A DNA stretch of 64,000 bases from an uncultured virus (IMG/VR IMGVR_UViG_3300027782_000042) (taxonomy: Duplodnaviria > Heunggongvirae > Uroviricota > Caudoviricetes). Under the pieces are notes generated by a model, which made no database searches, was not told where the DNA came from, and saw only the letters and a list, made by a program, of their open reading frames with translations. Below, piece after piece: positions 10,635 to 55,923 of this stretch; the stretch's first letter is position 1, and every line of letters starts with the position of its first letter. The stretch is from IMG/VR virus record IMGVR_UViG_3300027782_000042. The stretch is one strand, 5' to 3'. Made by a program: the position numbers and the translations under genes.

Positions 10635-10656
10635 AATATTTTTTTTAAGGTTATTA

Positions 10657-10687
10657 CAAATGTAATGGATTTTTTTGGTTCAAACAA
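10657..10687 (-). promoter_or_regulatory. Bacteroidota sigma70-type promoter
   Basis: minus strand TTG...TACATTTG. Confidence 0.55.
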
Positions 10688-10729
10688 CTATAGGGTATTA
10701 TTTTTTATTTTTAAATGTATTTATCCTAT

Positions 10730-11035
10730 ATGAGGATAATTATAACCGAAGATCAACATAAACAAATTCTTTCATTTATTCGAAGACTTAGTATTGCTGA
10801 CGAAATTATTTCTAGATTAAACCCTAAAGACATTTGTAGAATATGGTCGAACACAGAAAAGGACGCATTATTTTTTGCTGATGACGTTATTTTGGGAATT
10901 GTATGGGAAATTAATCAAACACTTGGAATTAAAAATTCGTATCACAATAAAGATCTGTATAGATTTTTTGAGGATTATGGTTATTACGACAAACTAAAAA
11001 AATTTTTTCACAAATCATTTGAATCATGCGAATAA
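10730..11035 (+). CDS. small acidic paralog-family protein, MRIIITEDQ
   Basis: ORF track. Confidence 0.8.
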   Translation: MRIIITEDQHKQILSFIRRLSIADEIISRLNPKDICRIWSNTEKDALFFADDVILGIVWEINQTLGIKNSYHNKDLYRFFEDYGYYDKLKKFFHKSFESCE

Positions 11036-43978: not shown

Positions 43979-44599
43979 ATGAGGATAATAACATTTTATA
44001 ATGAAAAAATAAACCCAATAGTTGTTGATTATCAAAAAAAAGTATTTAATCATTTTAAATATGATATAAATCAGATAAACGTATCAAATTGGGTTAGTCA
44101 TGGTAATTCAATTGACGATTATTTAACAACAATTGAAGACCCAAATGAAGTTATTGTTCTATTTGATATTGATTGTATTCCATTAAACAAAAAAATAATA
44201 GGACATGCGGTTGAATGGGTGATAAAAAATGATGGTGTATTTGGTAACTCTCAGTTAGCCCCTAAATTAATGAAACCTCATAATACTTTTATTTATGTTG
44301 CACCTTCTTTTATGGTTTTTACTATGAAGACATATGAAAGATTAGGTAAACCAAGTTTTACAACAAATAATAGATCAGATTGTGGTGCAGAAATAACCCA
44401 TAACGCAATAGAAAAAGACGTAAAGATTAAATTATTATACCCAACAAGCGTAGAAGTTCCAACTGTTAAATTAAAAGACAATATTTGGTTTGGGTATGGG
44501 ACAAACTATGAGAATAACACTTATCATTCTTTTGAATCTAGATTCAGAAAAAAAGACAGTTTTTTCTTGAATAAATGTAAAAGTATTTTAAATATTTAA
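43979..44599 (+). CDS. putative glycosyltransferase (GT-A, DxD)
   Basis: LFDIDCIP. Confidence 0.6.
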   Translation: MRIITFYNEKINPIVVDYQKKVFNHFKYDINQINVSNWVSHGNSIDDYLTTIEDPNEVIVLFDIDCIPLNKKIIGHAVEWVIKNDGVFGNSQLAPKLMKPHNTFIYVAPSFMVFTMKTYERLGKPSFTTNNRSDCGAEITHNAIEKDVKIKLLYPTSVEVPTVKLKDNIWFGYGTNYENNTYHSFESRFRKKDSFFLNKCKSILNI

Positions 44600-44600
44600 T

Positions 44601-46301
44601 ATGGATAAAATTTATGATTTTTGTATTTTAATTACCACATATAATAGACCTGATTTTTTAAAAAGGTTATTAGATGATATAAATAACCAAAAAAAAGATT
44701 ATAATGTTTTGGTTGCGGTTTTTAATGATGGTAGCGACGTTGAATATGACCTTAGTAGGTATGACGTAAAAAAAATAGATATTTACCCAAACATGGGTAA
44801 AAAAAAGTATTATAATGTTATTAATAAAACTTTTGAATTTGTAAAAAATATTCATTCTAAATATTTTATTTATTTACCTGACGACATTAAATTAGTTGAT
44901 AATTTTTTTGAAGAAACTAAAGAGATGTACATAAAAATTGACTCAAGAAAAAAAATATGTTTAAACATATTAACAGACGATAGAGTTCTTAGAGATAATT
45001 GGGGTTACCCTAAAGGGGTGGATTATGGGGATTTTTATCAAACGCAATGGAATGACCTATGTTTTATTTGTGAAAAAAAGTTTTTTGAGTCCTTGGATTA
45101 TAAAATATATGATATACCACTATCTAGGTGGTCTAAAAACCCAAATCTAAGTTCTGGTGTTGGTCATCAAATAACTGATAGATTAAACAAAAAAAAGTTT
45201 TTCCTATACCACACCAAAAAATCTATGGTAATTCATGGGGATCATGAATCTAAAATGAATTATACTGAAAGATTAAAAACTAAATTAGTGACTAAACATA
45301 ATTTTGATTTATCTATAATTGTACCAACATATAAGAATACAAATTACCTTGACGAATGTATAAATTCTTTGGTCAAATCCACAGAAAATTATAATGTGGA
45401 GATTTTAATTGGGGTTGACGGGTGTAAAGAAACTATGGATTTTATTAAAGGAAAAAAGTTCCCAAAAAACGTAACATTTTTTTATTTCAATGAAAATGAA
45501 GGTCCTTACTCAATTAAGAACACTTTAACAAGTATATGTAATTCTAAAAATTTATTATTTTTTGATTCTGATGATATATCAGAAAAAGAATTAGTGTCAA
45601 CAATTATTAATAATATTGATAAATATGATTGTATAAAGCCAAAATATAAAGATTTTGGTGTTGGTATTACACCGTCAAATAAGTCACTTTTTGGTGAGGG
45701 TGTGTTTGCAATAACTAAGGAATTATTCTTAAATATGAATGGTTTTGAACCTTGGATGTGTGCTGCTGATTCTGATTTTATGGGTAGATTATATAAGAGA
45801 AAATGTAAAATACTACATACACCTGTAACTTTATTTAAAAGAAGAATTCATGATAATGGTTTAACAAGTCGTACTGACACCGGACTAAGATCACCAAAAA
45901 GATTCCAATATCAACAAATATCAAAATCTAAAAAAGGTGACGGCAATCCTAAAAAATTAAACATAAGGGATTTTAAAATTATTGACCATGATGGGATTTT
46001 AGAAACGTTTGTTTACCCTGAAATAGTTGAAACAAATAATGAAAAATGTTTGGTTTCTATTTTTAACAAAGAACCAAAAATAATAGAAGAAGTTTTTATT
46101 CGTAAAAAACAAAAAGTAGTTTCGGACAATCCTTTATTTAATATTCTTAAAAACAAAGAAAAAGTAACTGAAGTTAATATAGTAACAGAACAAAGAAAAA
46201 ATGTTGAACAAATAAAACAAAAAACAAAGAGACAAATTAATGATGAGTTTAATCCGCCAAAACCAAATAGAAGACTTGATCTACCAAAATTAAGATTTTA
46301 A
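44601..46301 (+). CDS. tandem GT2 glycosyltransferase
   Basis: ILITTYNR..DDI and SIIVPTYK..FFDSDD domains. Confidence 0.85.
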   Translation: MDKIYDFCILITTYNRPDFLKRLLDDINNQKKDYNVLVAVFNDGSDVEYDLSRYDVKKIDIYPNMGKKKYYNVINKTFEFVKNIHSKYFIYLPDDIKLVDNFFEETKEMYIKIDSRKKICLNILTDDRVLRDNWGYPKGVDYGDFYQTQWNDLCFICEKKFFESLDYKIYDIPLSRWSKNPNLSSGVGHQITDRLNKKKFFLYHTKKSMVIHGDHESKMNYTERLKTKLVTKHNFDLSIIVPTYKNTNYLDECINSLVKSTENYNVEILIGVDGCKETMDFIKGKKFPKNVTFFYFNENEGPYSIKNTLTSICNSKNLLFFDSDDISEKELVSTIINNIDKYDCIKPKYKDFGVGITPSNKSLFGEGVFAITKELFLNMNGFEPWMCAADSDFMGRLYKRKCKILHTPVTLFKRRIHDNGLTSRTDTGLRSPKRFQYQQISKSKKGDGNPKKLNIRDFKIIDHDGILETFVYPEIVETNNEKCLVSIFNKEPKIIEEVFIRKKQKVVSDNPLFNILKNKEKVTEVNIVTEQRKNVEQIKQKTKRQINDEFNPPKPNRRLDLPKLRF

Positions 46302-46345
46302 CTTGATATTGTTTTAAGTATTAAGTATTTTTAAATAAAAAACTT

Positions 46346-46534
46346 ATGTTCATTATAATTAAACACGTAAAAACAAATAATAAAGGAATTTCAGGTAAAA
46401 GACTTCCTGTAATATTATTAAATACCGAAACTGAAGTGTGGGAATTTAACACCATCGAAGAGGCTGAAAAAATGAAAGAGATCTTCCAAACTAATTCTGA
46501 TTCAGGTCACATATACGAAGTAAAAAAAATATAA
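46346..46534 (+). CDS. hypothetical protein
   Basis: ORF track. Confidence 0.7.
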   Translation: MFIIIKHVKTNNKGISGKRLPVILLNTETEVWEFNTIEEAEKMKEIFQTNSDSGHIYEVKKI

Positions 46535-46535
46535 T

Positions 46536-46652
46536 ATGGAAGAAATTTTAGAATTAATTCATAACGAATTTATAGAATCGGAAGATTACTACGTGTTCTT
46601 ACGTAGATTGGATGAAGAACAGGAAAATATTGAAAAAACGATTGTCAATTAA
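46536..46652 (+). CDS. small acidic hypothetical protein (38 aa)
   Basis: read by hand MEEILELIHNEF... Confidence 0.45.
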   Translation: MEEILELIHNEFIESEDYYVFLRRLDEEQENIEKTIVN

Positions 46653-46671
46653 AAAAAATCACATATATTTG
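46642..46671 (+). promoter_or_regulatory. Bacteroidota-type promoter upstream of leader 1
   Basis: TTG...TATATTTG. Confidence 0.55.
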
Positions 46672-46716
46672 TACAAGAATTAAAATTTTTAGAAAAAACA
46701 ATATATTTATAACAAG

Positions 46717-46827
46717 ATGAAAACAACTAATAGACATATGAACATTTGTAACCCGAGCATTCAGTGGTCGTTTAACGTGTATCGTACGCTTAAGTCGCAT
46801 AATAGGGCATTTTTATTTATGAGTTGA
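46717..46827 (+). CDS. attenuator leader peptide 1 (36 aa) for tRNA array 1
   Basis: MKTTNRHMNICNPSIQWSFNVYRTLKSHNRAFLFMS; codons match array-1 anticodons; followed by terminator. Confidence 0.8.
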   Translation: MKTTNRHMNICNPSIQWSFNVYRTLKSHNRAFLFMS

Positions 46828-46856
46828 TAAAGATTAACTAAACATATAAGAAATAT

Positions 46857-46889
46857 AAGACCCTAACTCAAAACAGTTAGGGTTTTTTT
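46857..46889 (+). terminator. attenuator terminator 1
   Basis: AAGACCCTAACT-caaaac-AGTTAGGGTTTTTTT. Confidence 0.85.
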
Positions 46890-46903
46890 ATACCCAAAAA
46901 TTT

Positions 46904-46976
46904 GGTTCCTTAGTATAGTTTGGTAATATCCCGGCTTTGTAACCCGGAGTCATCAGTTCGACCCTGATAGGAACCT
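46904..46976 (+). tRNA. trnT: tRNA-Thr(UGU)
   Basis: cloverleaf, loop TT-TGT-AA, one anticodon-stem mismatch. Confidence 0.8.
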
Positions 46977-46987
46977 CAAAAGAAAAA

Positions 46988-47003
46988 GTTCTTTGACATA
47001 TTG
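46988..47003 (+). promoter_or_regulatory. boxA-like antitermination site
   Basis: GTTCTTTGACATATTG. Confidence 0.6.
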
Positions 47004-47013
47004 GATTCATTAA

Positions 47014-47085
47014 TGTTCCCTCGTCTAATCGGCAGGACACATGGTTTTGGTCCATGGAATCGAGGTTCGAACCCTTGGGGAACAA
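47014..47085 (+). tRNA. trnQ: tRNA-Gln(UUG)
   Basis: cloverleaf, CATGG-TTTTGGT-CCATG. Confidence 0.9.
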
Positions 47086-47091
47086 CAATAA

Positions 47092-47175
47092 GGAAGATGA
47101 ATCACAACGGCTTGTGACCCCGTCTTGAAAACGGGCGGTACCGAAAGGTATTGGGATCGACACCTACTTCTTCCT
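47092..47175 (+). tRNA. trnS: tRNA-Ser(UGA)
   Basis: CCCGT-CTTGAAA-ACGGG, long variable arm. Confidence 0.8.
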
Positions 47176-47181
47176 CTATAA

Positions 47182-47257
47182 CGGGATGTGGACTAATTGA
47201 CTAAGTCGCCACTTTTGGGAAGTGGACATCATCCAGGTTTGAGTCCTGGTATCCCGA
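47182..47257 (+). tRNA. trnP: tRNA-Pro(UGG)
   Basis: CCACT-TTTGGGA-AGTGG. Confidence 0.85.
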
Positions 47258-47262
47258 CTAAT

Positions 47263-47338
47263 GTCTTCGTAGCTCAGTTGGTTTCAGAGCACTCCACTTT
47301 TAATGGAGGGGTCACAGGTTCGAACCCTGTCGGGGACA
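47263..47338 (+). tRNA. trnK: tRNA-Lys(UUU)
   Basis: CTCCA-CTTTTAA-TGGAG. Confidence 0.9.
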
Positions 47339-47346
47339 CAAAAAAA

Positions 47347-47377
47347 TTTGGTAGATTAAAAAAAACCATTAACTTTG
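47347..47377 (+). promoter_or_regulatory. Bacteroidota-type promoter
   Basis: TTTG...TAACTTTG just before ORF 47382. Confidence 0.65.
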
Positions 47378-47381
47378 TACT

Positions 47382-47597
47382 ATGAATAAAGTAGAGAAAA
47401 TTAAAAAAGGACTTCCAAACGGAATGGTTAAGGTTGGGGAAGAATGTGAGAGAGCAATCGTAAGATTGGTTAAACAAGGTAAATCCGAAAACGAGGCAAC
47501 AGAAATTGTTTTGAAACTATTAAAAGATAGTAAACCTTATATTGAACAAGGAATGTACTCTACCACAATTGAAAGTATTAAAATGATAACATCATAA
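47382..47597 (+). CDS. hypothetical protein
   Basis: ORF track; own promoter. Confidence 0.7.
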   Translation: MNKVEKIKKGLPNGMVKVGEECERAIVRLVKQGKSENEATEIVLKLLKDSKPYIEQGMYSTTIESIKMITS

Positions 47598-47599
47598 AC

Positions 47600-47673
47600 G
47601 CACCTTTAGCTCAGATGGTAGTAGCGGTTGTTTTACATACAACAGGTCACAGGTTCGATCCCTGTAGGGTGTA
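47600..47673 (+). tRNA. trnV: tRNA-Val(UAC)
   Basis: GTTGT-TTTACAT-ACAAC. Confidence 0.9.
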
Positions 47674-47677
47674 CAAA

Positions 47678-47799
47678 GGTTGATTGGGGAATGATATAAC
47701 GTTAACGTGTCAGTAGTTCGTAGTTATGTCGGAGTTTTAACTGTCATAGTAACGCCAATCATAAAAGGGGATGTCCACGGAACCATCTTCCCCTTTCCT
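47678..47799 (+). ncRNA. unidentified structured RNA
   Basis: TGATTGG/CCAATCA and AAAGGGGA/TCCCCTTT stems between tRNAs. Confidence 0.4.
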
Positions 47800-47804
47800 G
47801 AACT

Positions 47805-47890
47805 GGGAGAGTTGAGCAATTGGTTGGCTCAGCAGACTGTAAATCTGTCGTCGTGAGACCTTGGGGGTTCGAGTCCCTCCTCTCCCACCA
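47805..47890 (+). tRNA. trnY: tRNA-Tyr(GUA)
   Basis: GCAGA-CTGTAAA-TCTGT, variable arm, encoded CCA. Confidence 0.9.
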
Positions 47891-47896
47891 AAAAAT

Positions 47897-47969
47897 GGAC
47901 AAGTAGCTCAATTGGGAGAGCATCGTACTGTTAATACGAGGGTTGTAGGATCGTACCCTACCTTGTCCG
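47897..47969 (+). tRNA. trnN: tRNA-Asn(GUU)
   Basis: TCGTA-CTGTTAA-TACGA. Confidence 0.85.
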
Positions 47970-47976
47970 CAACAAT

Positions 47977-48049
47977 GCTCACGTAGCTTAATCGGGAAAG
48001 CACCACGCTGATATCGTGGAGAGAATAGGATCGTAACCTATCGTGAGCA
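47977..48049 (+). tRNA. trnI: tRNA-Ile(GAU)
   Basis: CCACG-CTGATAT-CGTGG. Confidence 0.85.
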
Positions 48050-48107
48050 CAAAAAGGGGAATAACTTGTGTGGGTGCCCCAACTACTGCAGGAGTACCAC
48101 ACTCTAT

Positions 48108-48193
48108 GGAAGATAAACCTTGATGGAGATAGGGTCCGCCTGCTAAGCGAGATGTACCCGTAAGGGTATTTGGTTCGATTCCAATGTCTTCCT
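48108..48193 (+). tRNA. trnS: tRNA-Ser(GCU)
   Basis: CGC-CTGCTAA-GCG, long variable arm. Confidence 0.75.
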
Positions 48194-48201
48194 CGATTAA
48201 A

Positions 48202-48285
48202 ATCCGGAAATTTTCCGGATAGGATGACTTTTTTTCCGGATAGACATCTACAATTGAATAATCTATTAGGAAAATTTCCGGATAG
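48202..48285. repeat. TTTCCGGATAG x3 with ATCCGGAAA-T-TTTCCGGAT palindrome
   Basis: direct inspection. Confidence 0.75.
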
Positions 48286-48299
48286 ATATAAAACAACAA

Positions 48300-48367
48300 C
48301 CCGTATGATCAGGGATCAAAGTTGGCTCATATCCGACTTGAGGTTGGTTCAAGTCCAACATACGGGA
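48300..48367 (+). tRNA. trnM: atypical tRNA-Met(CAU) with minimal D-arm
   Basis: CCCGTAT/ATACGGG acceptor, GATC-AGG-GATC D-arm, GTTGG-CTCATAT-CCGAC. Confidence 0.6.
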
Positions 48368-48373
48368 CTATAT

Positions 48374-48447
48374 GGTGTTTGTAGCTCAATCGGGAGAGCG
48401 TCGGTTTGTGAAGCCGAAAGTAGTGGGATCGAAACCCACCATTCACC
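48374..48447 (+). tRNA. trnH: tRNA-His(GUG)
   Basis: G-1, C73, TCGGT-TTGTGAA-GCCGA; two acceptor mismatches. Confidence 0.8.
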
Positions 48448-48449
48448 CA

Positions 48450-48578
48450 AAAGAATTTACAACGGACAAGGCTTAGGCAAGTGAGTTGAGAATGAGTAGT
48501 AGGAGATGTTATCGTTTGGACTACAGAAAGTTTGATACAAGAGATTGGTGGGATGCGAGTGGTTGACCAAAATTCTTT
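48450..48578 (+). ncRNA. unidentified RNA closed by terminal stem
   Basis: AAAGAATTT/AAATTCTTT ends. Confidence 0.35.
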
Positions 48579-48582
48579 AATT

Positions 48583-48655
48583 ACCTTCGTAGTTAAATAG
48601 AATAGAACCTGTGGCTACGGACCACAAGATGTGAGTTTGAGTCTCGCCGAAGGTA
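48583..48655 (+). tRNA. trnR: tRNA-Arg(ACG)
   Basis: TGTGG-CTACGGA-CCACA. Confidence 0.85.
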
Positions 48656-48656
48656 C

Positions 48657-48833
48657 AAAAGATGATAAGAAACGTAGAATGACAGACGTGGAGAGACGTG
48701 TCGTAAGGGTACACACTAAGGAAAGGTATTCAATCTTAATTGTATTGATGTAACAACCCAACTCTCTAATGGTGTGTGAAGCGTCGTAGTGATACGAACC
48801 CCAGATTCCTGATAAAGTCATTTATCATCTTTT
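48657..48833 (+). ncRNA. unidentified structured RNA (~175 nt)
   Basis: AAAAGATGATAA/TTATCATCTTTT closing stem, AATGAC/GTCATT, ACACAC/GTGTGT. Confidence 0.5.
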
Positions 48834-48837
48834 ATTT

Positions 48838-48910
48838 GCCCCCATCGTCCAACTGAACAGGACGTTCCCCTTCTAAGGGAAAGATCGGAGTTTGAATCTC
48901 TGTGGGGGTA
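48838..48910 (+). tRNA. trnR: tRNA-Arg(UCU)
   Basis: TTCCC-CTTCTAA-GGGAA. Confidence 0.85.
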
Positions 48911-48918
48911 CAAAACAC

Positions 48919-48989
48919 ACATGGTACAGACAAGGTGTCGGTCAGGTCTCCAAAACCTCGACGGGTTAGTTCGATTCTAACACCATGTG
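48919..48989 (+). tRNA. trnW: atypical tRNA-Trp(CCA) with minimal D-arm
   Basis: ACATGGT/ACCATGT, GACA-AGG-TGTC D-arm, AGGT-CTCCAAA-ACCT. Confidence 0.7.
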
Positions 48990-49035
48990 CAAAAATTAAT
49001 TTTGCCAGTTAAAAAAAATTTCGTATCTTTACAGT

Positions 49036-49530
49036 ATGAAAGACGCACTACCATATTGTAATACAGGAAAAGCCATTAAAGGTTATGAAGAATCTGCAAT
49101 CGCAAAAAATGAAACCAACGATTGTGTTGTAAGAGCATTTGCATCTTGTTTTGATGTGTCTTACGATTACGCTCACAAATACGTTAGAGAAAATTTTGGT
49201 CGTAGAGATCGTAACGGTACTTATGGTACTGTAGATAAAATGACTAAACTTGCAGAAAATAGAAGTCAAGTAAACTACAAAAAAGTTAAGTGTGTTGGTA
49301 AATTAAACAATTACCGTAGACACACTTTGGAGTACGATGTTAAAGTAAAGGGTGAGAGAGTTAAACGTAAAATGACTGTGGGTACATTTACAAAACAAAA
49401 CCCTATTGGGACATTCTTTATGTTAGTTAGTCGTCACGCTTTCACAATCAAAGATGGTGTGGTAATTGGTAACCACGAGGATTCAACCAAGAAAAAACGT
49501 GTATTACTTCATGCGTTTGAAGTTAAATAA
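49036..49530 (+). CDS. hypothetical protein (NDCVVRA motif)
   Basis: ORF track; host-type promoter directly upstream. Confidence 0.8.
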   Translation: MKDALPYCNTGKAIKGYEESAIAKNETNDCVVRAFASCFDVSYDYAHKYVRENFGRRDRNGTYGTVDKMTKLAENRSQVNYKKVKCVGKLNNYRRHTLEYDVKVKGERVKRKMTVGTFTKQNPIGTFFMLVSRHAFTIKDGVVIGNHEDSTKKKRVLLHAFEVK

Positions 49531-49593
49531 GACGGGAGGCGAGAGTTGAGGGTAGAACCATTAGGATACCTCAACCAAGTCCTCCCTGAAGAA

Positions 49594-49666
49594 GGACAGG
49601 TAGCTCAGTTGGTAGAGCTCAGGATTGAAGATCCTGGAGTCGGGGGTTCGACACCCTCTCTGTCCA
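49594..49666 (+). tRNA. trnF: tRNA-Phe(GAA)
   Basis: CAGGA-TTGAAGA-TCCTG. Confidence 0.9.
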
Positions 49667-49682
49667 CAAATAAAAAGAAATA

Positions 49683-50138
49683 ATGAACAGAGTATTTAGG
49701 ACAATTAATGGTGAAGCGATACCTGATGTGGTTAAACACACCTTAGATGTTTTAAAGGAATGTCCATGGGTTGAGATCCATATTGGAACCGATTCACAAA
49801 ACCATAGAAGAAGTACCGTATATGTTACGGTAATTGCTTACAGGTATGGTAATCGTGGTGTTCACTACATCCTACACAAACAAAAAGTGAAAAAAATAAA
49901 AGACAAGTGGACACGTCTTTGGAATGAAGCCGATTATTCAATTGAGGTTGCCGAATGGTTAACTCAAAAAGTAAAAGTTAAGGTTGAAATAGATTTGGAT
50001 TATAATTGTGAAGATAAACATTACAGTTCAAAACTTGTTTCTCCTGTTGTTGGGTGGGCAACGTCGTTAGGTTATAAAGCAAATATTAAACCTGACAATC
50101 AAATTGCAACAAGAGCGGCAGATCACCACTGCCGTTAA
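49683..50138 (+). CDS. RNase H-like YkuK (DUF458) family protein
   Basis: IHIGTDSQ, RLWNEA, EIDLDYN, IKP..ATRAAD. Confidence 0.85.
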   Translation: MNRVFRTINGEAIPDVVKHTLDVLKECPWVEIHIGTDSQNHRRSTVYVTVIAYRYGNRGVHYILHKQKVKKIKDKWTRLWNEADYSIEVAEWLTQKVKVKVEIDLDYNCEDKHYSSKLVSPVVGWATSLGYKANIKPDNQIATRAADHHCR

Positions 50139-50140
50139 TT

Positions 50141-50213
50141 GCTCAGGTGGTCGAGTGGTTTAGGCCCAGGTCTGCAAAACCTTGGTACGGGGGTTCGAAT
50201 CCCTCCCTGAGCT
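50141..50213 (+). tRNA. trnC: tRNA-Cys(GCA)
   Basis: AGGT-CTGCAAA-ACCT, U73. Confidence 0.85.
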
Positions 50214-50220
50214 CAAAAAT

Positions 50221-50294
50221 GCCTTCGTGGTGGAATTGGTATACACGTCACTCTTAGAAAGTGAATTTTGCAGGTTCGAGTCCTGCCGGAGGTA
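50221..50294 (+). tRNA. trnL: tRNA-Leu(UAG), short variable region
   Basis: TCACT-CTTAGAA-AGTGA, Leu-type D-arm. Confidence 0.8.
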
Positions 50295-50313
50295 CAAACA
50301 AAAAAAAGTGAAG

Positions 50314-50556
50314 ATGGAAAAGTTGATGAAAAATAAAGAAGGAGAATACCTATACGTTTTTGATATAATTCAAAACGGTAAAGTCGCAGGGTCAAATATT
50401 TTGTGGAGTAAGAACTTCATCCAAGTAATGGCGAGTGCAAAAAAAAGATTTGGTAATGTGGATAATGAGTCTTTTAAAAGATTAACCAAAGATGAGTACG
50501 CAACTATGATCGAGGATCAAAAAACAAAAAAACTTGATAAAAAAAGAAAGTGGTGA
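50314..50556 (+). CDS. hypothetical protein
   Basis: start adjusted to MEKLMKN downstream of tRNA-Leu. Confidence 0.65.
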   Translation: MEKLMKNKEGEYLYVFDIIQNGKVAGSNILWSKNFIQVMASAKKRFGNVDNESFKRLTKDEYATMIEDQKTKKLDKKRKW

Positions 50557-50595
50557 TTTAAATCGTATATTGAATATTTATTAATAAAACATTTA

Positions 50596-50928
50596 ATGAA
50601 AAAAGTAATTAGACTAACAGAATCAGATTTAACAAGAATTGTTAAACGTGTAATTAATGAAAATGACAACTATAAAGACAGAAGTATGTATGATCCGTAC
50701 TATAGTGAAGAACTTCAAGAGTTAATTGAAGAGGCGAGAGATTTCCTTGAAAATGAATGTGGATATGACATTGAAGAAATCAATTCAATGGATGAATTTG
50801 ATATTATTGAGGCGTTATATGCTGATAATAATGAAGATTTAGCTGATGAAATTGAAAAATTATTAAACCAAGAAGGTTTTTATAATGCCGATGAGGACGA
50901 AGACTTTGATGATGAAGAATATGCATAA
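50596..50928 (+). CDS. acidic protein, MKKVIRLTESDL propeptide
   Basis: ORF track. Confidence 0.8.
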   Translation: MKKVIRLTESDLTRIVKRVINENDNYKDRSMYDPYYSEELQELIEEARDFLENECGYDIEEINSMDEFDIIEALYADNNEDLADEIEKLLNQEGFYNADEDEDFDDEEYA

Positions 50929-50951
50929 TAAAAAATATAAAAAACATAAAA

Positions 50952-51284
50952 ATGAGAAATAGATTAACAGAAAGAGACTTATCACGTATTGTTAAACGTG
51001 TAATTAATGAAAATAAAGAGGGTATGATTCGTATCCCAAGTATGTATGAGGGTGTTAGAATGGAACTTGGAAAAAGTGCTAACCCACAAGATGTCATTGA
51101 CATGTATAATGAACTTGTTGAAGAGGGGTCTACTCTTGTTGACTATTCTGAGTATGGAACTGAAGGTATGTTTTATAATGAAGAAGGTGATGAGATCCCT
51201 GTTAATGTAATTCTTGATGAACTTAACTACGCAATAGTTGGTGAAGAAGATGAAGATTACGACGATGAAGATGGAAATTATTAA
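50952..51284 (+). CDS. acidic protein, RLTERDL..VINE propeptide
   Basis: ORF track. Confidence 0.8.
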   Translation: MRNRLTERDLSRIVKRVINENKEGMIRIPSMYEGVRMELGKSANPQDVIDMYNELVEEGSTLVDYSEYGTEGMFYNEEGDEIPVNVILDELNYAIVGEEDEDYDDEDGNY

Positions 51285-51344
51285 ATAAAACTTGACACTT
51301 TTAAAAAGTATCATATATTTATAACAAAACAAATAAAAACGCAA

Positions 51345-51419
51345 ATGAAAAATTTACATATCATATTATTAGGCGGATTGGCGATAGCTGAGGATCGTTC
51401 CTATAAGGAGATGGTATGA
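51345..51419 (+). CDS. attenuator leader peptide 2 (24 aa) for tRNA array 2
   Basis: MKNLHIILLGGLAIAEDRSYKEMV; core codons match array-2 anticodons; followed by terminator. Confidence 0.8.
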   Translation: MKNLHIILLGGLAIAEDRSYKEMV

Positions 51420-51443
51420 TAATTTAACACATAATAAATTTTG

Positions 51444-51475
51444 AAAACCCATCTCCAAAAGAGGTGGGTTTTTTT
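51444..51475 (+). terminator. attenuator terminator 2
   Basis: AAAACCCATCTC-caaaa-GAGGTGGGTTTTTTT. Confidence 0.85.
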
Positions 51476-51490
51476 GTTCTTTGAAATTTT
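51476..51490 (+). promoter_or_regulatory. boxA-like site
   Basis: GTTCTTTGAAATTTT directly after terminator 2. Confidence 0.5.
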
Positions 51491-51518
51491 GGAAATTAAA
51501 AAATAAACAGTATCTTTG
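51488..51518 (+). promoter_or_regulatory. Bacteroidota-type promoter
   Basis: TTTG...TATCTTTG. Confidence 0.6.
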
Positions 51519-51522
51519 TTTT

Positions 51523-51813
51523 ATGATAACATTTGATGATATAGAGTTTAAACCACATGGTATTGGTAATGGGGTTCACGGATTACTGTTTTTTCCTGGA
51601 GGATACGGAATCTCGGTTGTAAGATTTAAATCTCCTTTTGGTGGGGGTGGATCATATACTTCAGATGATGATGATTATGAGGTCGCCGTTATTAAAGGAA
51701 CAAAAGATGATTGGGAAATTTCTTATGACACAAAAATAACTAATGATGTTTTGGGTTATCAGACTAAAGAGGATATAAATAAATTAATTACTCAAATTTT
51801 AAGATACTGTTAA
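51523..51813 (+). CDS. hypothetical phage protein
   Basis: start adjusted; FPGGYGISVV..YEVAV..DVLGY. Confidence 0.75.
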   Translation: MITFDDIEFKPHGIGNGVHGLLFFPGGYGISVVRFKSPFGGGGSYTSDDDDYEVAVIKGTKDDWEISYDTKITNDVLGYQTKEDINKLITQILRYC

Positions 51814-51814
51814 A

Positions 51815-51979
51815 ATGAAAACAAAGGAAAAAAATATCGTACATAAGATGATCTTGGGTAGTCAAAGGGTTGCTCAAAAAGAACAAGGTTTTTTTGATGG
51901 TAGATTTGTTACTAGATCTATGGATTTAAAAAATAATTACACAAGGAAAGAAAAACACAAAAAAAGTTTGGTAGATTAG
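51815..51979 (+). CDS. small basic protein, ArfA-like ribosome rescue factor candidate
   Basis: read by hand: ..FDGRFVTRSMDLKNNYTRKEKHKK.. Confidence 0.55.
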   Translation: MKTKEKNIVHKMILGSQRVAQKEQGFFDGRFVTRSMDLKNNYTRKEKHKKSLVD

Positions 51980-51998
51980 AAAAAACCTTGTATATTTG
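51967..51998 (+). promoter_or_regulatory. Bacteroidota-type promoter
   Basis: TTTG...TATATTTG. Confidence 0.6.
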
Positions 51999-52061
51999 TA
52001 AGACAAACAACGGGGGTAGGAAGTGAGAGGTTGGTGTCCTACTCCCGTGAAGACAGAAGAA

Positions 52062-52074
52062 GTTCATTGAAATA
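52062..52074 (+). promoter_or_regulatory. boxA-like site
   Basis: GTTCATTGAAATA after hairpin 52010-52048. Confidence 0.5.
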
Positions 52075-52080
52075 AAAATA

Positions 52081-52165
52081 TAGTGGTTGTAAGAAACGGG
52101 AAACTTGTAAAGTACATTAACCTGTTGGCTCAAGATGGTGAAACAAGAGTGTGAGTCAACTACTA
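52081..52165 (+). ncRNA. unidentified structured RNA
   Basis: TAGTGGTTG/CAACTACTA closing stem. Confidence 0.4.
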
Positions 52166-52177
52166 ACTACATAAATT

Positions 52178-52252
52178 TGTCAGGTGGGCGTAATGAGGGA
52201 CGGTGCCCGAATCCTATAGGTTGCTTATCCGGTTCGAGTCCGGCCCTGACAA
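52178..52252 (+). ncRNA. tRNA-like RNA without canonical anticodon arm (family copy 1)
   Basis: TGTCAGG/CCTGACA acceptor, GGTTCGAGTCC T-arm. Confidence 0.6.
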
Positions 52253-52265
52253 AAAAATTTTAAAT

Positions 52266-52387
52266 AGGTAAGTGGCGGAATTGGCAGACGCTTAGGTTTA
52301 TTCCCCGTAAGAAGTCACCGAGATATAGCTGGGGATGTCTCTTGAAAAGGGAACTATATCGTACAGGTTCGAATCCTGTTTTACCTA
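52266..52387 (+). ncRNA. tRNA scaffold with ~70-nt structured insert replacing the anticodon arm
   Basis: acceptor, TGGCGGAATTGGCAGACGC D-arm, CAGGTTCGAATCCTG T-arm. Confidence 0.6.
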
Positions 52388-52392
52388 CATAT

Positions 52393-52463
52393 TGCGGTTT
52401 AGTGTAATTGGTAGCACACGGGGCTCATAACCCTGAGGCCAGGTTCGAGCCCTGAATCCGCTA
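52393..52463 (+). tRNA. trnfM: initiator tRNA-fMet(CAU)
   Basis: 1:72 mismatch, three G:C pairs in anticodon stem, CTCATAA loop. Confidence 0.8.
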
Positions 52464-52469
52464 CTAAAT

Positions 52470-52550
52470 GCTGACGTACCAGTGGACGCTTATATCGTCT
52501 ATGACTGTAGTGGTAAGTTTAAAACGTTGGTTCGAATCCAACCGTCAGTA
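52470..52550 (+). tRNA. atypical tRNA-like RNA with UAU (Ile) anticodon loop
   Basis: GCTGACG/CGTCAGT acceptor, GGACG-CTTATAT-CGTCT, canonical T-arm, no D-arm. Confidence 0.5.
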
Positions 52551-52556
52551 CAATAA

Positions 52557-52628
52557 GCGGGTATCGTATAATGGTTATTACTCCACACTTCCAATGTGGA
52601 GACGAGTGTTCGATTCATTCTACCCGCA
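52557..52628 (+). tRNA. trnG: tRNA-Gly(UCC)
   Basis: CCACA-CTTCCAA-TGTGG. Confidence 0.9.
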
Positions 52629-52633
52629 CAAAT

Positions 52634-52706
52634 GGGCCTGATGCCGACGGCAGGTCGACTGATTTGCAATCAGATCGTATGGGTTCGATTCCCACAGTGT
52701 CCACCA
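52634..52706 (+). tRNA. trnA: tRNA-Ala(UGC)
   Basis: G3:U70, CTGA-TTTGCAA-TCAG, acceptor bulge, encoded CCA. Confidence 0.7.
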
Positions 52707-52728
52707 AATAAACAATTAATACAAATGA

Positions 52729-52884
52729 ATGATGAGAGAAGTTTTATCAGGAACCTCAGAGTCATCGAAAGTTAAAATGATTAGAGTTAACACGAATACT
52801 GACTGGTTGAAGAAACTGAAAAAAACGCTTAATAGAACGAAGTACAAGTTTAGGGTGGGGAGCGGGTCCCACAAAAAAATTTAA
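52729..52884 (+). CDS. small basic hypothetical protein (51 aa)
   Basis: read by hand MMREVLSG...GSHKKI. Confidence 0.35.
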   Translation: MMREVLSGTSESSKVKMIRVNTNTDWLKKLKKTLNRTKYKFRVGSGSHKKI

Positions 52885-52891
52885 AAAAAGA

Positions 52892-52923
52892 TTTGGTAGA
52901 TCAAAATAGATTACATATCTTTG
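52892..52923 (+). promoter_or_regulatory. Bacteroidota-type promoter
   Basis: TTTG...TATCTTTG. Confidence 0.65.
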
Positions 52924-52943
52924 TAGAACAAAAATAAAGAACT

Positions 52944-53225
52944 ATGACAAACACAGAGACAATTAAAACAGTAGGTTTAAGAATTATAAAGATTGAGGGA
53001 TATGATTATTGTTTGACAGGATACCCAAACAAAAACACAATCCGTGAATGGGAAGACGCATATGAGTTTGAAAGTTTTGTTCAGAATGTCTTAAAGATTG
53101 ATGGTGAATTTGATTCTGAAAGTGGTCAGTTCTACGTGTACTTCAAAACCAAACAAAAGGCTACCTCCTCTTTGAATAAAATTGAAAAACATTTCAAAAA
53201 AGTTGGTGAAATGTTAGGTTTGTAA
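52944..53225 (+). CDS. hypothetical protein
   Basis: ORF track. Confidence 0.75.
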   Translation: MTNTETIKTVGLRIIKIEGYDYCLTGYPNKNTIREWEDAYEFESFVQNVLKIDGEFDSESGQFYVYFKTKQKATSSLNKIEKHFKKVGEMLGL

Positions 53226-53236
53226 TAAAACAAAAT

Positions 53237-53308
53237 GGTCCCATCGACTATCGGTTAGGTCGCCAGGTTTTCATCCTGGAAAGTCGGGTTCGACTCCCGG
53301 TGGGACTA
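53237..53308 (+). tRNA. trnE: tRNA-Glu(UUC)
   Basis: CCAGG-TTTTCAT-CCTGG. Confidence 0.9.
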
Positions 53309-53368
53309 CAATGAAATGAACAACATAGCACACAAGTTGTACCTCTACGGTTTTAAAGTGTGGTTATT

Positions 53369-53444
53369 GGAGATTAGGTCAAATGGTTAAGATGTCGCCC
53401 TGTCACGGCGTTCGGAGCGGGTTCGACTCCCGTAATCTCCGCCA
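53369..53444 (+). tRNA. trnD: tRNA-Asp(GUC)
   Basis: CGCC-CTGTCAC-GGCG, G73, CCA. Confidence 0.9.
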
Positions 53445-53451
53445 AAAGAGA

Positions 53452-53467
53452 GTTCTTTGAAATATTG
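53452..53467 (+). promoter_or_regulatory. boxA-like site
   Basis: GTTCTTTGAAATATTG. Confidence 0.6.
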
Positions 53468-53603
53468 ATAGTGGTTTTCCCCACCTCAACGGATGTCGAC
53501 AATCCAGAGTGGATCAGGAATTCAGCACCCTCTGCCGGGGCCCTGAGAAAACTCAGAAGACGCAGTTAAGATTGGAGCGAGAAGGGTACTCCATCACTAT
53601 CAA
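53465..53603 (+). ncRNA. unidentified structured RNA (~140 nt)
   Basis: TTGATAGTG/CACTATCAA closing stem, GC-rich interior hairpins. Confidence 0.5.
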
Positions 53604-53611
53604 CAATATTT

Positions 53612-53685
53612 AGTCAGGTGGCTAATTGGTAACGCGCCCCGACAGAATGTTGGGGAGATTGCAGGTTCGAGTCCTGTCCTGACTA
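53612..53685 (+). ncRNA. tRNA-like RNA with extended anticodon stem (GAA at tip, no U33)
   Basis: AGTCAGG/CCTGACT acceptor, CCCCGACA-GAA-TGTTGGGG, canonical T-arm. Confidence 0.6.
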
Positions 53686-53775
53686 CAAATATTAAAAAAT
53701 TATGACACCAATATTATTTGTATTATTTGTTTTGTTTATCTTTATGGTAAGAAAGAGAAAATAACTCTTTAAAAT

Positions 53776-53862
53776 GCTCGGATGGTGGAATTGGTAGACA
53801 CGACAGGTTTAAGCTCTGTTGACCAGTGGGTTGTGAGGGTTCGAGTCCCTCTTCGAGTACCA
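53776..53862 (+). tRNA. trnL: tRNA-Leu(UAA)
   Basis: ACAGG-TTTAAGC-TCTGT, long variable arm, CCA. Confidence 0.9.
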
Positions 53863-53869
53863 ATGATAA

Positions 53870-53957
53870 ACTTCAGTACCCGTACCGCCAACGTAGGGTT
53901 AAATTAGATACAATTTCGTGTTACATTTATGTATGTGCGGGGAGTAGAATGCTGAAG
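53870..53957 (+). ncRNA. unidentified long hairpin RNA
   Basis: CTTCAGTA/TGCTGAAG and CCCGTAC/GTGCGGG stems. Confidence 0.4.
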
Positions 53958-53967
53958 AGTCGTTGTT

Positions 53968-54042
53968 TGTCAGGAGTGTAATGAGGCATGGTGCCGAGTC
54001 CTTTATGGTTGCTCATTGTGGGTTCGAATCCCACCCTGACAT
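53968..54042 (+). ncRNA. tRNA-like RNA without canonical anticodon arm (family copy 2)
   Basis: TGTCAGG/CCTGACA acceptor, GTGGGTTCGAATCCCAC T-arm, interior similar to 52178. Confidence 0.6.
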
Positions 54043-54046
54043 CAAA

Positions 54047-54121
54047 GGTCCTATAGCTCAGTTGGTTAGTAGCACTTGACTCATAATCAAGGGGTCGCAG
54101 GTTCGAGTCCTGCTGGGACCA
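54047..54121 (+). tRNA. trnI: tRNA-Ile2(CAU, lysidine type)
   Basis: CTTGA-CTCATAA-TCAAG; GGTCCTA acceptor with C4:G69/C5:G68 as in Ile2 tRNAs. Confidence 0.75.
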
Positions 54122-54165
54122 CAAAATATATTTATTTTTTAGTAAAATATTACTATATTAAAAAT

Positions 54166-54237
54166 GGCCCCATAGTTAAATGGATATAACGAATCTCTTC
54201 TAAAGATTAGTTCCTAGTTCGATTCTAGGTGGGGCTA
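54166..54237 (+). tRNA. trnR: tRNA-Arg(UCU), second copy
   Basis: AATCT-CTTCTAA-AGATT. Confidence 0.9.
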
Positions 54238-54254
54238 CATTTTTTTAAAAAAAT

Positions 54255-54285
54255 TTTGTAGATCTCAGAAATTCCCTTATCTTTG
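54255..54285 (+). promoter_or_regulatory. Bacteroidota-type promoter
   Basis: TTTG...TATCTTTG. Confidence 0.6.
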
Positions 54286-54309
54286 TTTAAACCAAAAAAC
54301 ATTAAGGAT

Positions 54310-55059
54310 ATGACGACAGACATCACAACTCAGGTAAAAAACTACAACGGTAAAAATTCTTTCATCTTGAAAATGAAGGACGCAGTCTCTAAATACGGTT
54401 CTTTGACAGTTAACCAAAGATCTGCGGTTGAGAAGATTTTCAACAATCCTGTTGAGGCAAAATCAGTTGAGATGACTGACGATATGAAAAAAATCGCATC
54501 TTACGAAGGTCCTAACTCTTTCGTTATTGACCTTAAAAACAAACTTAACCAATACGGTAAACTTTCTGAAAAACAGATCTCTACTGGTTTGAAACAAATC
54601 GATAAAGAGGAGAACAAAACTGTTATCCGTAAAGTTAACGTTCCTGCGATTGGAGACACAATCAAAGTTGGTCGAAAAATCGGACAACAACTTAAAGAAC
54701 AATACGGACTTAACTTTAACCCAATCCTTTTGGATATCACTAAAGTTTTGTCTTTCACATCAAAGGCGGTTAAATTCTCAGGTAAAATGACCGTAAAACG
54801 TGGGGATGTTTGTGTGTGTTGTGCTAAGACTCTTACAGACGAGTTCTCAATGTTGACTAAAATGGGTAAGACATGTGCTAAACACATGGGGGTTACATAC
54901 ATTACGGATGTGAATCAAGTTGACAAATTCCGTGAAGAATACCTTAAGAGGGTTGAGGAGATCGGTGAGATGGAATTTTGGGTTCCAAATTCACAAATCA
55001 AGTCTTGGGAAGGTGACACCAAAGTTCTTCAAAAAATGTCACACCTTTGGTTTAAATAA
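54310..55059 (+). CDS. hypothetical protein with N-terminal repeat and DUF6011-like zinc finger
   Basis: Y.G.NSF..KYG.L..Q twice; CVCCAKTLTDEFS..MGKTCAKH. Confidence 0.75.
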   Translation: MTTDITTQVKNYNGKNSFILKMKDAVSKYGSLTVNQRSAVEKIFNNPVEAKSVEMTDDMKKIASYEGPNSFVIDLKNKLNQYGKLSEKQISTGLKQIDKEENKTVIRKVNVPAIGDTIKVGRKIGQQLKEQYGLNFNPILLDITKVLSFTSKAVKFSGKMTVKRGDVCVCCAKTLTDEFSMLTKMGKTCAKHMGVTYITDVNQVDKFREEYLKRVEEIGEMEFWVPNSQIKSWEGDTKVLQKMSHLWFK

Positions 55060-55259
55060 AAAGAATGTGGGGTTTGTTCATTATGGGACAGACCCCGCTC
55101 ATTTGGTATAGTTTTGGGTATTTTATTTATTATTTATTAAAAAAAACGTTATGGAAATTATTATCGGAATTTCAATCCCTTTTATTTTGGCGGGAATTGT
55201 TTTATTGTCTTATATGATATATAACAAAAAATAAAAAAGGGACCTAAGTCCCTTCAATT

Positions 55260-55856
55260 TTATTTAATATCTGTTGATTTAATTAATGTGTAACTAAATG
55301 AGTTACCATGTATTTCTTTGGCTTTTCTACAAATCTTCATGAACTCCTCAAAATCCGCAGATTTTTTAAATACTTGACAACCTTCAGACCAATTCTCAAC
55401 ATATGTTGAATCGGCACCTGCTTTATGAATGTTAATACCATAAACACCTTCAGTAATTTTTTTCTCATCATAAATTAGATCTTTATTGGCATCACGATAA
55501 ACCTTAACGTTTTTCGCTTGACCTAAAGCTTCGTATTTACCTTGATGTAATCTAATTGTGTGAGATCCTCTATATTGACCCTCAACCAATCTTGCAACAC
55601 CATCTTTATTATGGTATTCCATAACACCTTTTTTACCTGGATCTGTAGTTGCTGGCCAAATATGGAATTTCCATTGACCGTCTACTTTATAGGATAATGT
55701 TAAATAATCATCAAAAACATTAGTAACTTTTTGTCCTGTAGCGGCATTTCTGATCCCAATGATATTAACATCGTAACTTTTGTTTGATGTATCTTCAAAC
55801 CAAACATAACCTTTGGATTTTACTGCGGTTTCAACCTGTTCTCTTGTATAACTCAT
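55260..55856 (-). CDS. L,D-transpeptidase-like (YkuD-type His/Cys) protein
   Basis: GINIH..WSEGCQV. Confidence 0.6.
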   Translation of the reverse strand: MSYTREQVETAVKSKGYVWFEDTSNKSYDVNIIGIRNAATGQKVTNVFDDYLTLSYKVDGQWKFHIWPATTDPGKKGVMEYHNKDGVARLVEGQYRGSHTIRLHQGKYEALGQAKNVKVYRDANKDLIYDEKKITEGVYGINIHKAGADSTYVENWSEGCQVFKKSADFEEFMKICRKAKEIHGNSFSYTLIKSTDIK

Positions 55857-55923
55857 AATAATTAATTTTCATTATAAATATATCTCACTTTGAAAAGTAA
55901 AGAGTTAGGACATATTTATTGAT

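Follow-up and report, generated by a model that had tools for sequence, protein, structure and literature searches.

A putative tRNA-supply-sensing leader-peptide attenuator ahead of a phage tRNA gene block

The window analysed here is a stretch of 64,000 nucleotides (nt) of DNA from an uncultured virus of the Caudoviricetes (IMG/VR record IMGVR_UViG_3300027782_000042). Its subject is leader 1, a short open reading frame (ORF) at 46717-46827 on the plus strand that lies between a promoter and an intrinsic terminator and heads a block of transfer RNA (tRNA) genes, array 1. The element is considered as a candidate attenuator, in which the position of a ribosome on the leader would govern the formation of the terminator. 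Comparisons refer to alignment A1, in which the complete element is represented by 35 sequences that differ at the nucleotide level and derive from lake phage contigs. The compared viral contig loci are designated by L-numbers (L009, L262 and so on).

A Bacteroidota sigma-A type promoter is located at 46641-46671 on the plus strand. It is composed of a -33 TTG (46642-46644), a 19-nt spacer, and the -7 box TATATTTG (46664-46671), from which transcription would start near 46676. The TA and TTTG of the box are kept in the relatives and the two middle bases are variable. Many genes in the 44-56 kb region have promoters of the same build, with a TTG near -33, a spacer of about 19-21 nt, and a TAnnTTTG box. 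In PMC9723704, the Flavobacterium sigma-A consensus is such a promoter, with its box at -12 to -5.

The leader ATG lies 41 nt downstream of the predicted transcription start. It is preceded by the motif TATATTTATAAC and a short spacer leading into the start context ATGAAAACA. This segment (46702-46724, plus strand) forms a second promoter-like box and the translation start, and is near-invariant in A1. Motifs of the TATATTTATAAC type are also present upstream of ordinary phage genes encoding 100-150 amino acids, in at least 19 of 50 distinct matches. Because the start motif is common to ordinary genes, it supports a true translation start at ATG 46717. The ORF consists of 36 codons and a TGA stop (46825-46827) and encodes the peptide MKTTNRHMNICNPSIQWSFNVYRTLKSHNRAFLFMS. 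Its putative sensing zone spans approximately codons 2-24.

The intrinsic terminator T1 follows at 46861-46889 on the plus strand. It is built from an 8-base-pair (bp) G+C-rich stem, a 6-nt loop, and seven T residues. The stem pairs CCCTAACT (46861-46868) with AGTTAGGG (46875-46882), and the T-run occupies 46883-46889. The predicted energy of T1 is -10.4 kcal/mol. On A1, 92.1% of the alignment cells of the stem are paired and five of the eight pairs have changed on both sides. Only three plus-strand terminators are seen in 44-56 kb, and two of them are T1 and the terminator of leader 2, a paralogous element farther downstream. The T-run is separated from tRNA-Thr (46904) by 14 nt, a gap too small to hold a promoter. 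The order of promoter, leader ORF, covarying terminator, and tRNA-Thr is the layout of an attenuator.

Array 1 extends over 46904-50295 on the plus strand and contains, in order, tRNAs for Thr, Gln, Ser, Pro, Lys, Val, Tyr, Asn, Ile, Ser, Met, His, Arg, Arg, Trp, Phe, Cys, and Leu(tag), with three ORFs interspersed. Default ARAGORN and Rfam identify 14 of these tRNAs. A relaxed ARAGORN threshold adds Ser(tga) at 47092-47176, Ser(gct) at 48108-48194, and Trp(cca) at 48919-48990. A further tRNA, Met(CAT)-like and with an unusual D arm (approximately 48300-48372), is recognised by eye only; an 11-nt stretch of its anticodon loop matches a Met(cat) called by ARAGORN at the same place in relatives. 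The count of 18 array-1 tRNAs, serving 16 amino acids, depends on accepting these four weak calls. One ORF inside the array, at 49683-50138, matches the Pfam family RNaseH_like (PF04308, E 1e-25). In locus L266, array 1 is much reduced, and ARAGORN calls a tRNA with anticodon TTA, reading the stop codon TAA, where relatives have tRNA-Lys(ttt).

Codon content and conservation of leader 1

The codons of the ORF, taken from the sequence and the ORF list, are exactly those that the initial annotation had set out from ATG 46717 to TGA. Its observation on their composition also holds: given the weak tRNA calls, every one of codons 1-30 belongs to an array-1 box, and together they represent all 18 families. 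Coverage is already complete with codons 1-25. The only codons foreign to array 1 are GCA (codon 31) and TTA (codon 33), as had been noted.

Such a composition is far from expectation. Array-1 boxes account for 67.9% of the codons in long ORFs of the window. The chance estimate proposed along with the observation was computed under phage codon usage: the exact P that the 29 codons after the ATG all lie within the boxes and cover all families is 5.05e-9. The corresponding value for 24 codons is 2.8e-9. The six frames of the window contain 151 ATG-initiated ORFs of 30-60 codons; leader 1 alone among them covers more than 15 families, and it is one of three that contain no foreign codon. Other loci provide 2998 ORFs of this size, in which zero foreign codons combined with at least 17 families is seen only in homologs of leader 1 (L241 and L247). 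Within the sensing zone, 23 of 23 codons are decodable by array 1, compared with the 68% background (P 1.4e-4).

The choice among synonymous codons is also unusual. In boxes read by U34 tRNAs, 8 of the 13 leader codons end in G, versus 10% in phage genes (P 8.5e-6), and G-ending codons make up 218 of 484 such codons across the family. The leader avoids ATA and encodes Leu by CTN, although TTA makes up 60% of Leu codons.

In all 35 distinct homologs, the frame that starts at the aligned ATG stays open for 35-37 codons. The alignment contains six gap runs inside the ORF, every one of them 3 nt long. Codon positions 1, 2, and 3 are equally variable, with changes in 17, 19, and 18 of 26 columns, respectively. 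Since the frame and the indel pattern are kept and the three positions vary alike, selection acts on the frame and not, as it usually would, on the order of the amino acids.

Conservation concerns the set of amino acids instead. All 16 amino acids of the array are present in 27 of the 28 distinct peptides. Residues that occur once in the leader shift position: Cys is found at position 11, 14, or 21 and Val at 9, 18, or 21, and Ile and Leu also move. Foreign codons number 28 of 999 across the family, against 32% expected. Only two of them are found among the 728 codons at positions 1-26; the others occupy positions 27-33, within segment 2 of the RNA fold described below or next to it.

The single peptide lacking an array amino acid is that of L262, which has no Arg. 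Searches of the L262 array with ARAGORN and with Infernal give no Arg tRNA, and Infernal finds no tRNA between those for His and Trp. Tracking of this kind was followed within the family in 16 distinct leaders having at least 4.5 kb of downstream sequence. An Arg codon at positions 2-26 and a call for tRNA-Arg are both present in ten cases and both missing in four; the codon alone is present in two cases and the tRNA alone in none. The four cases lacking both belong to at least three lineages. Over all amino acids, the leader lacks the amino acid of an array tRNA in 3 of 219 array cells. The tracking of array losses by the leader is partial, and not every loss is followed.

Alternative RNA structures ahead of the terminator

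The leader transcript can be divided into four segments that follow the classical 1:2, 2:3, and 3:4 logic. Segment 1 is the start-codon region (46715-46723, plus strand). In the minimum-energy fold it can pair with segment 2 if the leader is untranslated. The resulting helix P1 joins 46715-46723 to 46810-46818, and 95.2% of its A1 cells are paired. Segment 2 (TAGGGCATTTTT, 46803-46814, plus strand) covers codons 29-33, or leader nt 87-98. It pairs with segment 1 or else provides the 5' strand of the predicted antiterminator. Segment 3 (46849-46865, plus strand; AGAAAT..G.CCCTA) provides the 3' strand and includes the first 5 nt of the T1 5' arm. The stop codon lies in a hairpin, P2 (46822-46839, plus strand; AGTTGAT / ATTAACT), which is nested within the antiterminator. 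On A1, 83.3% of the P2 cells are paired and four of the seven pairs have changed on both sides.

The antiterminator was sought by folding RNA that lacks the T1 3' arm in 13 homologs. Pairing of 46803-46814 with 46849-46865 is dominant in the pre-terminator folds of all 13. With leader nt 84 onward free, the T1 5' arm pairs with a probability of 0.4-0.85 in each of them, and this probability falls to about 0 once leader nucleotides before 90 are masked. The GGG:CCC core of the helix is kept in 29-34 of the 35 A1 sequences. The pair next to it covaries, being C-G in 20 sequences, U-A in 8, and another combination in 7. In the subgroup formed by L329, L009, and L262, the helix reaches 10-11 bp, a result attained by 0, 1, and 0 of 300 dinucleotide shuffles, respectively. 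The register of this subgroup is shifted, so energies were evaluated for each sequence and not for a single family consensus. The free-energy difference (ddG) used as the measure under-reports helices that reach past the narrowly defined 5' arm, as in L085.

The initial annotation had placed the antiterminator elsewhere, between TGAGTTG at 46820-46826 and TAACTCA at 46864-46870. Both segments are located as it stated and can form 7 bp with one G-U pair in the window. On the 35 sequences, however, 54.1% of the cells of this pairing are paired, the level of shuffled controls (54.3%) and of a one-column slide (53.6%). Its energy in the window is -3.6 kcal/mol, compared with -4.6 kcal/mol for the rival hairpin P2. 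When leader nucleotides before 96 are masked in the fold, the T1 5' arm pairs with a probability of only 0.09. The pairing is absent in the group of relatives with a CCCGAGA arm and is broken in L017, L008, and L016. As it is neither competitive in folding nor covarying in homologs, a role as the antiterminator is hardly credible. The sensing run proposed with it, in codons upstream of the antiterminator, stands in modified form. With segment 2 as the 5' strand, it extends over approximately codons 2-24 and not codons 2-30.

The compensatory changes in P2 and T1 would also be expected of a small non-coding RNA that extends for some 210 nt from promoter to terminator and in which the open frame is incidental. 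Conservation of third codon positions to the same degree as the others fits such an RNA as well. It is at odds with 35 of 35 open frames in AT-rich DNA, with six of six ORF indels in multiples of 3, and with a constraint that is expressed in terms of codons. We regard the small RNA as very improbable.

Expression was assessed from assembled metatranscriptome contigs only. Parts of 46367-46807 are covered by three runs, and the tRNA region is covered by one, beginning at 46888. Since no contig spans 46814-46887, these contigs show neither termination nor read-through. Contigs from two studies (runs X17 and X18), which represent relatives of approximately 91-93% identity, end at about 46801-46807. 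Segment 2 starts there, and strain variation begins at the same place.

Metatranscriptome contigs over the leader region would equally be produced by an ordinary small phage gene, encoding a basic peptide of 36 amino acids and closed by a normal terminator, with the tRNAs transcribed by leak-through or from other promoters. Such a gene would likewise have its own promoter, a start context common to real genes, and a terminator. Yet residues that move, codon positions that vary equally, and an amino acid set that is kept are unlike a folded or binding peptide. A small gene would also leave unexplained the match between codons and array and the presence, in all eight leader classes (see below), of a terminator-competing helix with its 5' strand in the end of the ORF, and the 14 nt ahead of tRNA-Thr are too short for a promoter. 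We therefore assign this explanation a low probability, slightly above that of the small RNA.

Leader 2, other leader classes, and the phage

A paralog, leader 2, is found at 51292-51476 on the plus strand by nhmmer with the leader-1 profile (E 2.6e-5). It consists of a promoter at 51292, an ORF at 51345-51419 (MKNLHIILLGGLAIAEDRSYKEMV), and a terminator at 51443-51476. The ORF is rich in Gly, Ala, Glu, Asp, TTR, and ATA codons. These families are missing from codons 1-30 of leader 1 and account for 12 of the 16 codons in the sensing zone of leader 2. They are also the families served by array 2. The sequence GGAGATGG, within the last codons of leader 2, is complementary to the 5' arm of its terminator.

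Several features lie near leader 2 and array 2. Adjacent paralogs of 110 amino acids are encoded at 50596-50928 and 50952-51284, between array 1 and leader 2; they share a basic N-terminus and very acidic tails and have no Pfam match. In the window, two small ORFs and another promoter intervene between leader 2 and array 2, and in the relatives L021, L022, and L325 leader 2 is located directly ahead of tRNA-Leu(taa). Just 3' of the sigma-A type promoter at 51991 lies a structured and G+C-richer stretch (52005-52260) that matches no Rfam family and whose end resembles the T arm of a tRNA. L085 has a similar structured stretch between its terminator and first tRNA. A tRNA match of 122 nt at 52266-52388 has an apparent insertion in the anticodon region. 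The Ala(TGC)-like tRNA of array 2, at approximately 52634-52707 and with an encoded CCA end, is recognised by eye only.

Altogether, seven leader classes besides leader 1 share its design: leader 2 and six classes in other viral contigs. In each, a complement of 7-12 bp to the terminator 5' arm is located within the last 5-38 nt of the ORF. The codon content of the leaders parallels the arrays that follow them. The 44-codon leader of L281/L099 contains all 20 amino acids, and its array serves all 20. The leader of L263 lacks Cys and Arg, and its array lacks Cys and Arg tRNAs. The core of the L289 leader reads M F H I E S Q C W and is followed by tRNAs for Glu, Phe, Cys, Ile, Trp, Met, Gln, His, and Ser. 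The L085 leader contains PQPQQHP and precedes tRNAs for Pro, Pro, His, Gln, Gln, and Gln. The His-rich leader of L077 contains Trp and heads an array of Trp, Trp, and His. L018 represents the sixth class.

Shuffle tests of the class antiterminators, each with 300 shuffles, give 0 equal or better for L099, 1 for L251, 0 for L077, and 6 for L018, followed by 19 for L219 and 24 for L021. To compare leaders with arrays, every one of the eight leaders was scored against every array. Own arrays reach a summed z of 24.1 with the sensing codons, which is equalled by 3 of 40320 permutations; with all codons the number is 6 of 40320. Arrays that serve nearly all amino acids add no power to this test. 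Left out of it were L128, a 600-nt locus that shows a terminator and no tRNAs other than those for Arg and Thr, as well as L134, with a 4-codon ORF, and four short ORFs having no tRNA within 6 kb (L298, L324, L328, and L330).

These comparisons bear on a further possibility, that the element is an attenuator sensing general translation status, such as host shut-off or a ribosome-targeting defence, to which the codon match is secondary. The architecture would be identical, a leader with 16 amino acids is little specific by itself, and leaders that keep an amino acid without a called tRNA downstream, as detailed below, agree with it. A general sensor would not, however, account for narrow leaders ahead of narrow arrays, as in L085 (Pro, Gln, and His), L289 (nine amino acids), and L077 (His and Trp). 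Nor would it explain the complementary codon content of leaders 1 and 2 and the rarity of permutations that equal the own-array match. The 726 non-foreign codons among 728 at positions 1-26 and the conserved choice of rare codons also argue for a specific signal. We judge general sensing unlikely, though it is the most serious of the alternatives.

The relatives were gathered with the flanking proteins of 62 and 71 amino acids together with a specific DNA pattern. Two loose DNA patterns were also used, and the matches listed for them are mostly unrelated AT-rich DNA; among the matches listed, tRNAs lie downstream of six for the first pattern and of 5 of 118 for the second. Leader classes C, F, and G are chance finds of the first loose pattern. 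No relative of the leader was found by blastn against public phage records, in which matches are at the tRNA level only. For the nearest record, G001, only tRNA pieces of the query were matched; G001 nonetheless carries a copy of leader 2.

The DNA of the window is AT-rich, with 31% G+C. It encodes a protein with a tail lysozyme domain and, at 26156-28618 and 55924-57543, respectively, a protein with SprB repeat, PKD-like, and CHU_C type IX secretion sorting domains and a protein with PAS and histidine-kinase ATPase domains. The SprB/CHU_C type IX sorting protein supports a host in Bacteroidota, and the virus is a freshwater phage whose host probably belongs to that group. Near-identical DNA is present in freshwater and lake metagenomes, and the nearest relatives of the window are contigs of uncultured viruses, with lengths reaching about 300 kb. 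One relative, L273, carries a GOLLD RNA at 10621-11031 on the minus strand of the locus (Rfam RF02032, 322 bits, E 1e-91); no GOLLD RNA was found in the window.

Proposed mechanism and relation to known systems

Taken together, the data make it probable that leader 1 is a ribosome-mediated (leader-peptide) transcription attenuator that senses tRNA supply and heads a phage tRNA block. The initial annotation had proposed that a ribosome stalled on a translated leader gates the terminator. The architecture, the conservation, and the seven other classes bear this out in kind, with an antiterminator other than the one it named.

In the proposed mechanism, transcription would begin at the sigma-A type promoter near 46676, and the 36-codon leader would be translated during RNA synthesis. 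On an untranslated leader, segment 1 would pair with segment 2 and T1 would form. A ribosome that has reached the stop codon would cover segment 2 and the stop-codon hairpin, leaving the CCC of the T1 5' arm free, and T1 would again form. In both situations transcription would stop 14 nt ahead of tRNA-Thr. A ribosome dwelling at codons 2 to about 24 would leave segment 2 free to pair with segment 3 before the T1 3' arm is made. This pairing would tie up the base of the T1 stem, and the polymerase would continue into the tRNA genes. We infer that the leader is translated, that stalling shifts the structure, and that the signal sensed is tRNA supply. As the leader codons sample all 18 families, with rare G-ending codons among them, the switch would report a shortage of any array tRNA and feed back on its synthesis.

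Several observations weigh against this interpretation or restrict its reach. Translation of leader 1 is predicted from its sequence. P1 is nearly invariant, which makes covariation uninformative for this helix. The gain from the antiterminator in the window is -4.5 kcal/mol, a value equalled by 17 of 300 shuffles and smaller than the -10.4 kcal/mol of T1; the switch may be leaky in the window copy because the antiterminator is weak there. The shuffle tests for leader 2 (72 of 300) and L085 (135 of 300) are not significant, with complements of 8-10 bp recognised by eye. The eight classes are only partly independent, since the promoter and start motif are common to them and several of them are homologs.

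The correspondence between leader and array is also imperfect. The initial claim that leader 1 covers every isoacceptor is true of the window copy and does not extend to the family, in which both Arg boxes are present in 13 of 28 peptides only. Leaders keep an amino acid without a downstream tRNA call in 35 of 320 cells, for example in L273, L266, and L290. Missed calls of unusual tRNAs may add to these 35 cells.

Another restriction concerns the genes under control of T1. Sigma-A type promoters lie inside array 1 at 47370 and 49024. A conserved 17-nt motif, GTTCTTTGACATATTGG, is found at 46988-47004, downstream of tRNA-Thr in all relatives, and might be a promoter. With the internal promoters and this motif, T1 may strictly gate tRNA-Thr alone or the first five tRNAs. 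If the motif is a promoter, T1 gates only tRNA-Thr in the window phage. Otherwise, the tRNAs gated by T1 include those for Thr, Gln, Ser, Pro, and Lys at the least, and T1 also contributes to the remaining ones because no plus-strand terminator is seen before 51443. Motifs of the GTTCTTTGACATATTGG type are also found 3' of leader terminators in other classes, mostly about 10 nt ahead of a tRNA.

In the window, the motif GTTCTTTGAMATWTTG(G) is confined to tRNA regions and occurs at 46988-47004, 51476-51492, and 53452-53467, that is, after tRNA-Thr, the leader-2 terminator, and tRNA-Asp, respectively. Candidate roles for it are promoter, processing signal, and protein site. The motif GTTCTTTGAMATWTTGG might be a promoter.

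A broader proposition is that lake and marine Bacteroidota phages carry modular tRNA-supply sensing, with each tRNA block placed behind a test message that lists its tRNAs. For this generalization the odds appear about even. If it is true, the phage would switch on the tRNA set whose decoding is limiting and switch it off once supply is restored. Triggers could include cleavage of host tRNAs by anticodon-nuclease defences, host shut-off, or the AT-rich codon demand of the phage. Decoding speed would then be shown for the first time to exert feedback on tRNA genes, and the phage would possess an inbuilt answer to defences that target tRNA. A leader peptide that samples each codon family and gates the matching tRNA genes would be a sensor of tRNA supply that acts directly and corrects itself, and it would link phage tRNA arrays to tRNA depletion or cleavage in the host. 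It would account for phage tRNA blocks that are headed by terminators and would extend the principle of attenuation from amino acid metabolism to the decoding apparatus. The codon content of a leader could also predict the tRNAs of its block, including odd ones missed by standard finders (4 of 18 here). To our knowledge, the control of bacterial tRNA genes, by growth rate and the stringent response, does not sense decoding itself, and little is known of how phages regulate the tRNA genes they carry.

Described RNA families provide no direct counterpart. No Rfam leader family is matched at E <= 1 in 44000-56000 or at the gathering score anywhere in the window, in which tRNA is the only described family. 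In L299, the 3' part of the leader and the terminator (6091-6187) give sub-threshold, non-significant hits to Thr_leader (27.4 bits, E 0.32) and Trp_leader (25.5 bits, E 0.39). A full-text literature search that covered titles and the beginnings of abstracts, with subscription journals outside its range, found no leader-peptide attenuator ahead of tRNA genes.

Leader-peptide attenuation itself is reported in Flavobacterium, where PMC9723704 (with Table S7) places leader-peptide attenuators on mapped transcripts of ilvE, hisG, and pheA. In general, and as proposed for leader 1, amino acid operon leaders possess a promoter-proximal short ORF, an intrinsic terminator, and a mutually exclusive antiterminator that starts at the ORF end. 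Their regulatory codons are likewise located about a ribosome footprint upstream, and pairing of the start region gives termination by default. Multivalent leaders are also familiar in enterobacteria and come nearest to leader 1: that of ilvGMEDA contains Ile, Val, and Leu codons and that of thr contains Thr and Ile codons. Other classical leaders include trpL, hisL, leuL, and pheL. The leu leader uses rare CUA codons, and leader 1 likewise uses rare codons.

The differences lie in the targets and the codons. Amino acid operon leaders control biosynthetic enzymes, whereas leader 1 precedes tRNA genes and small phage ORFs. Leader 1 has no codon runs and samples 16 amino acids in 18 families, mostly once or twice each. 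Unlike the operon leaders, it is borne by a phage and belongs to a matched set with one leader per tRNA block. In every described leader-peptide attenuator known to us, the regulated genes are those of amino acid biosynthesis or synthetases. With tRNA genes downstream, the element is classed as a variant and not as a member of a described family.

Two further systems resemble leader 1 in part. In E. coli pheM-pheST, a leader with Phe codons controls phenylalanyl-tRNA synthetase, and attenuation acts on a component of the decoding apparatus, as it would here. That system is cellular, monitors one amino acid, and has a synthetase as its target, whereas leader 1 is viral and is followed by tRNA genes. 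T-box riboswitches (RF00230, with no match in the window) also use a terminator and an antiterminator to report the state of specific tRNAs. They bind uncharged tRNA directly, do so without translation, and control synthetase and amino acid genes in Firmicutes, whereas leader 1 contains a conserved translatable frame.

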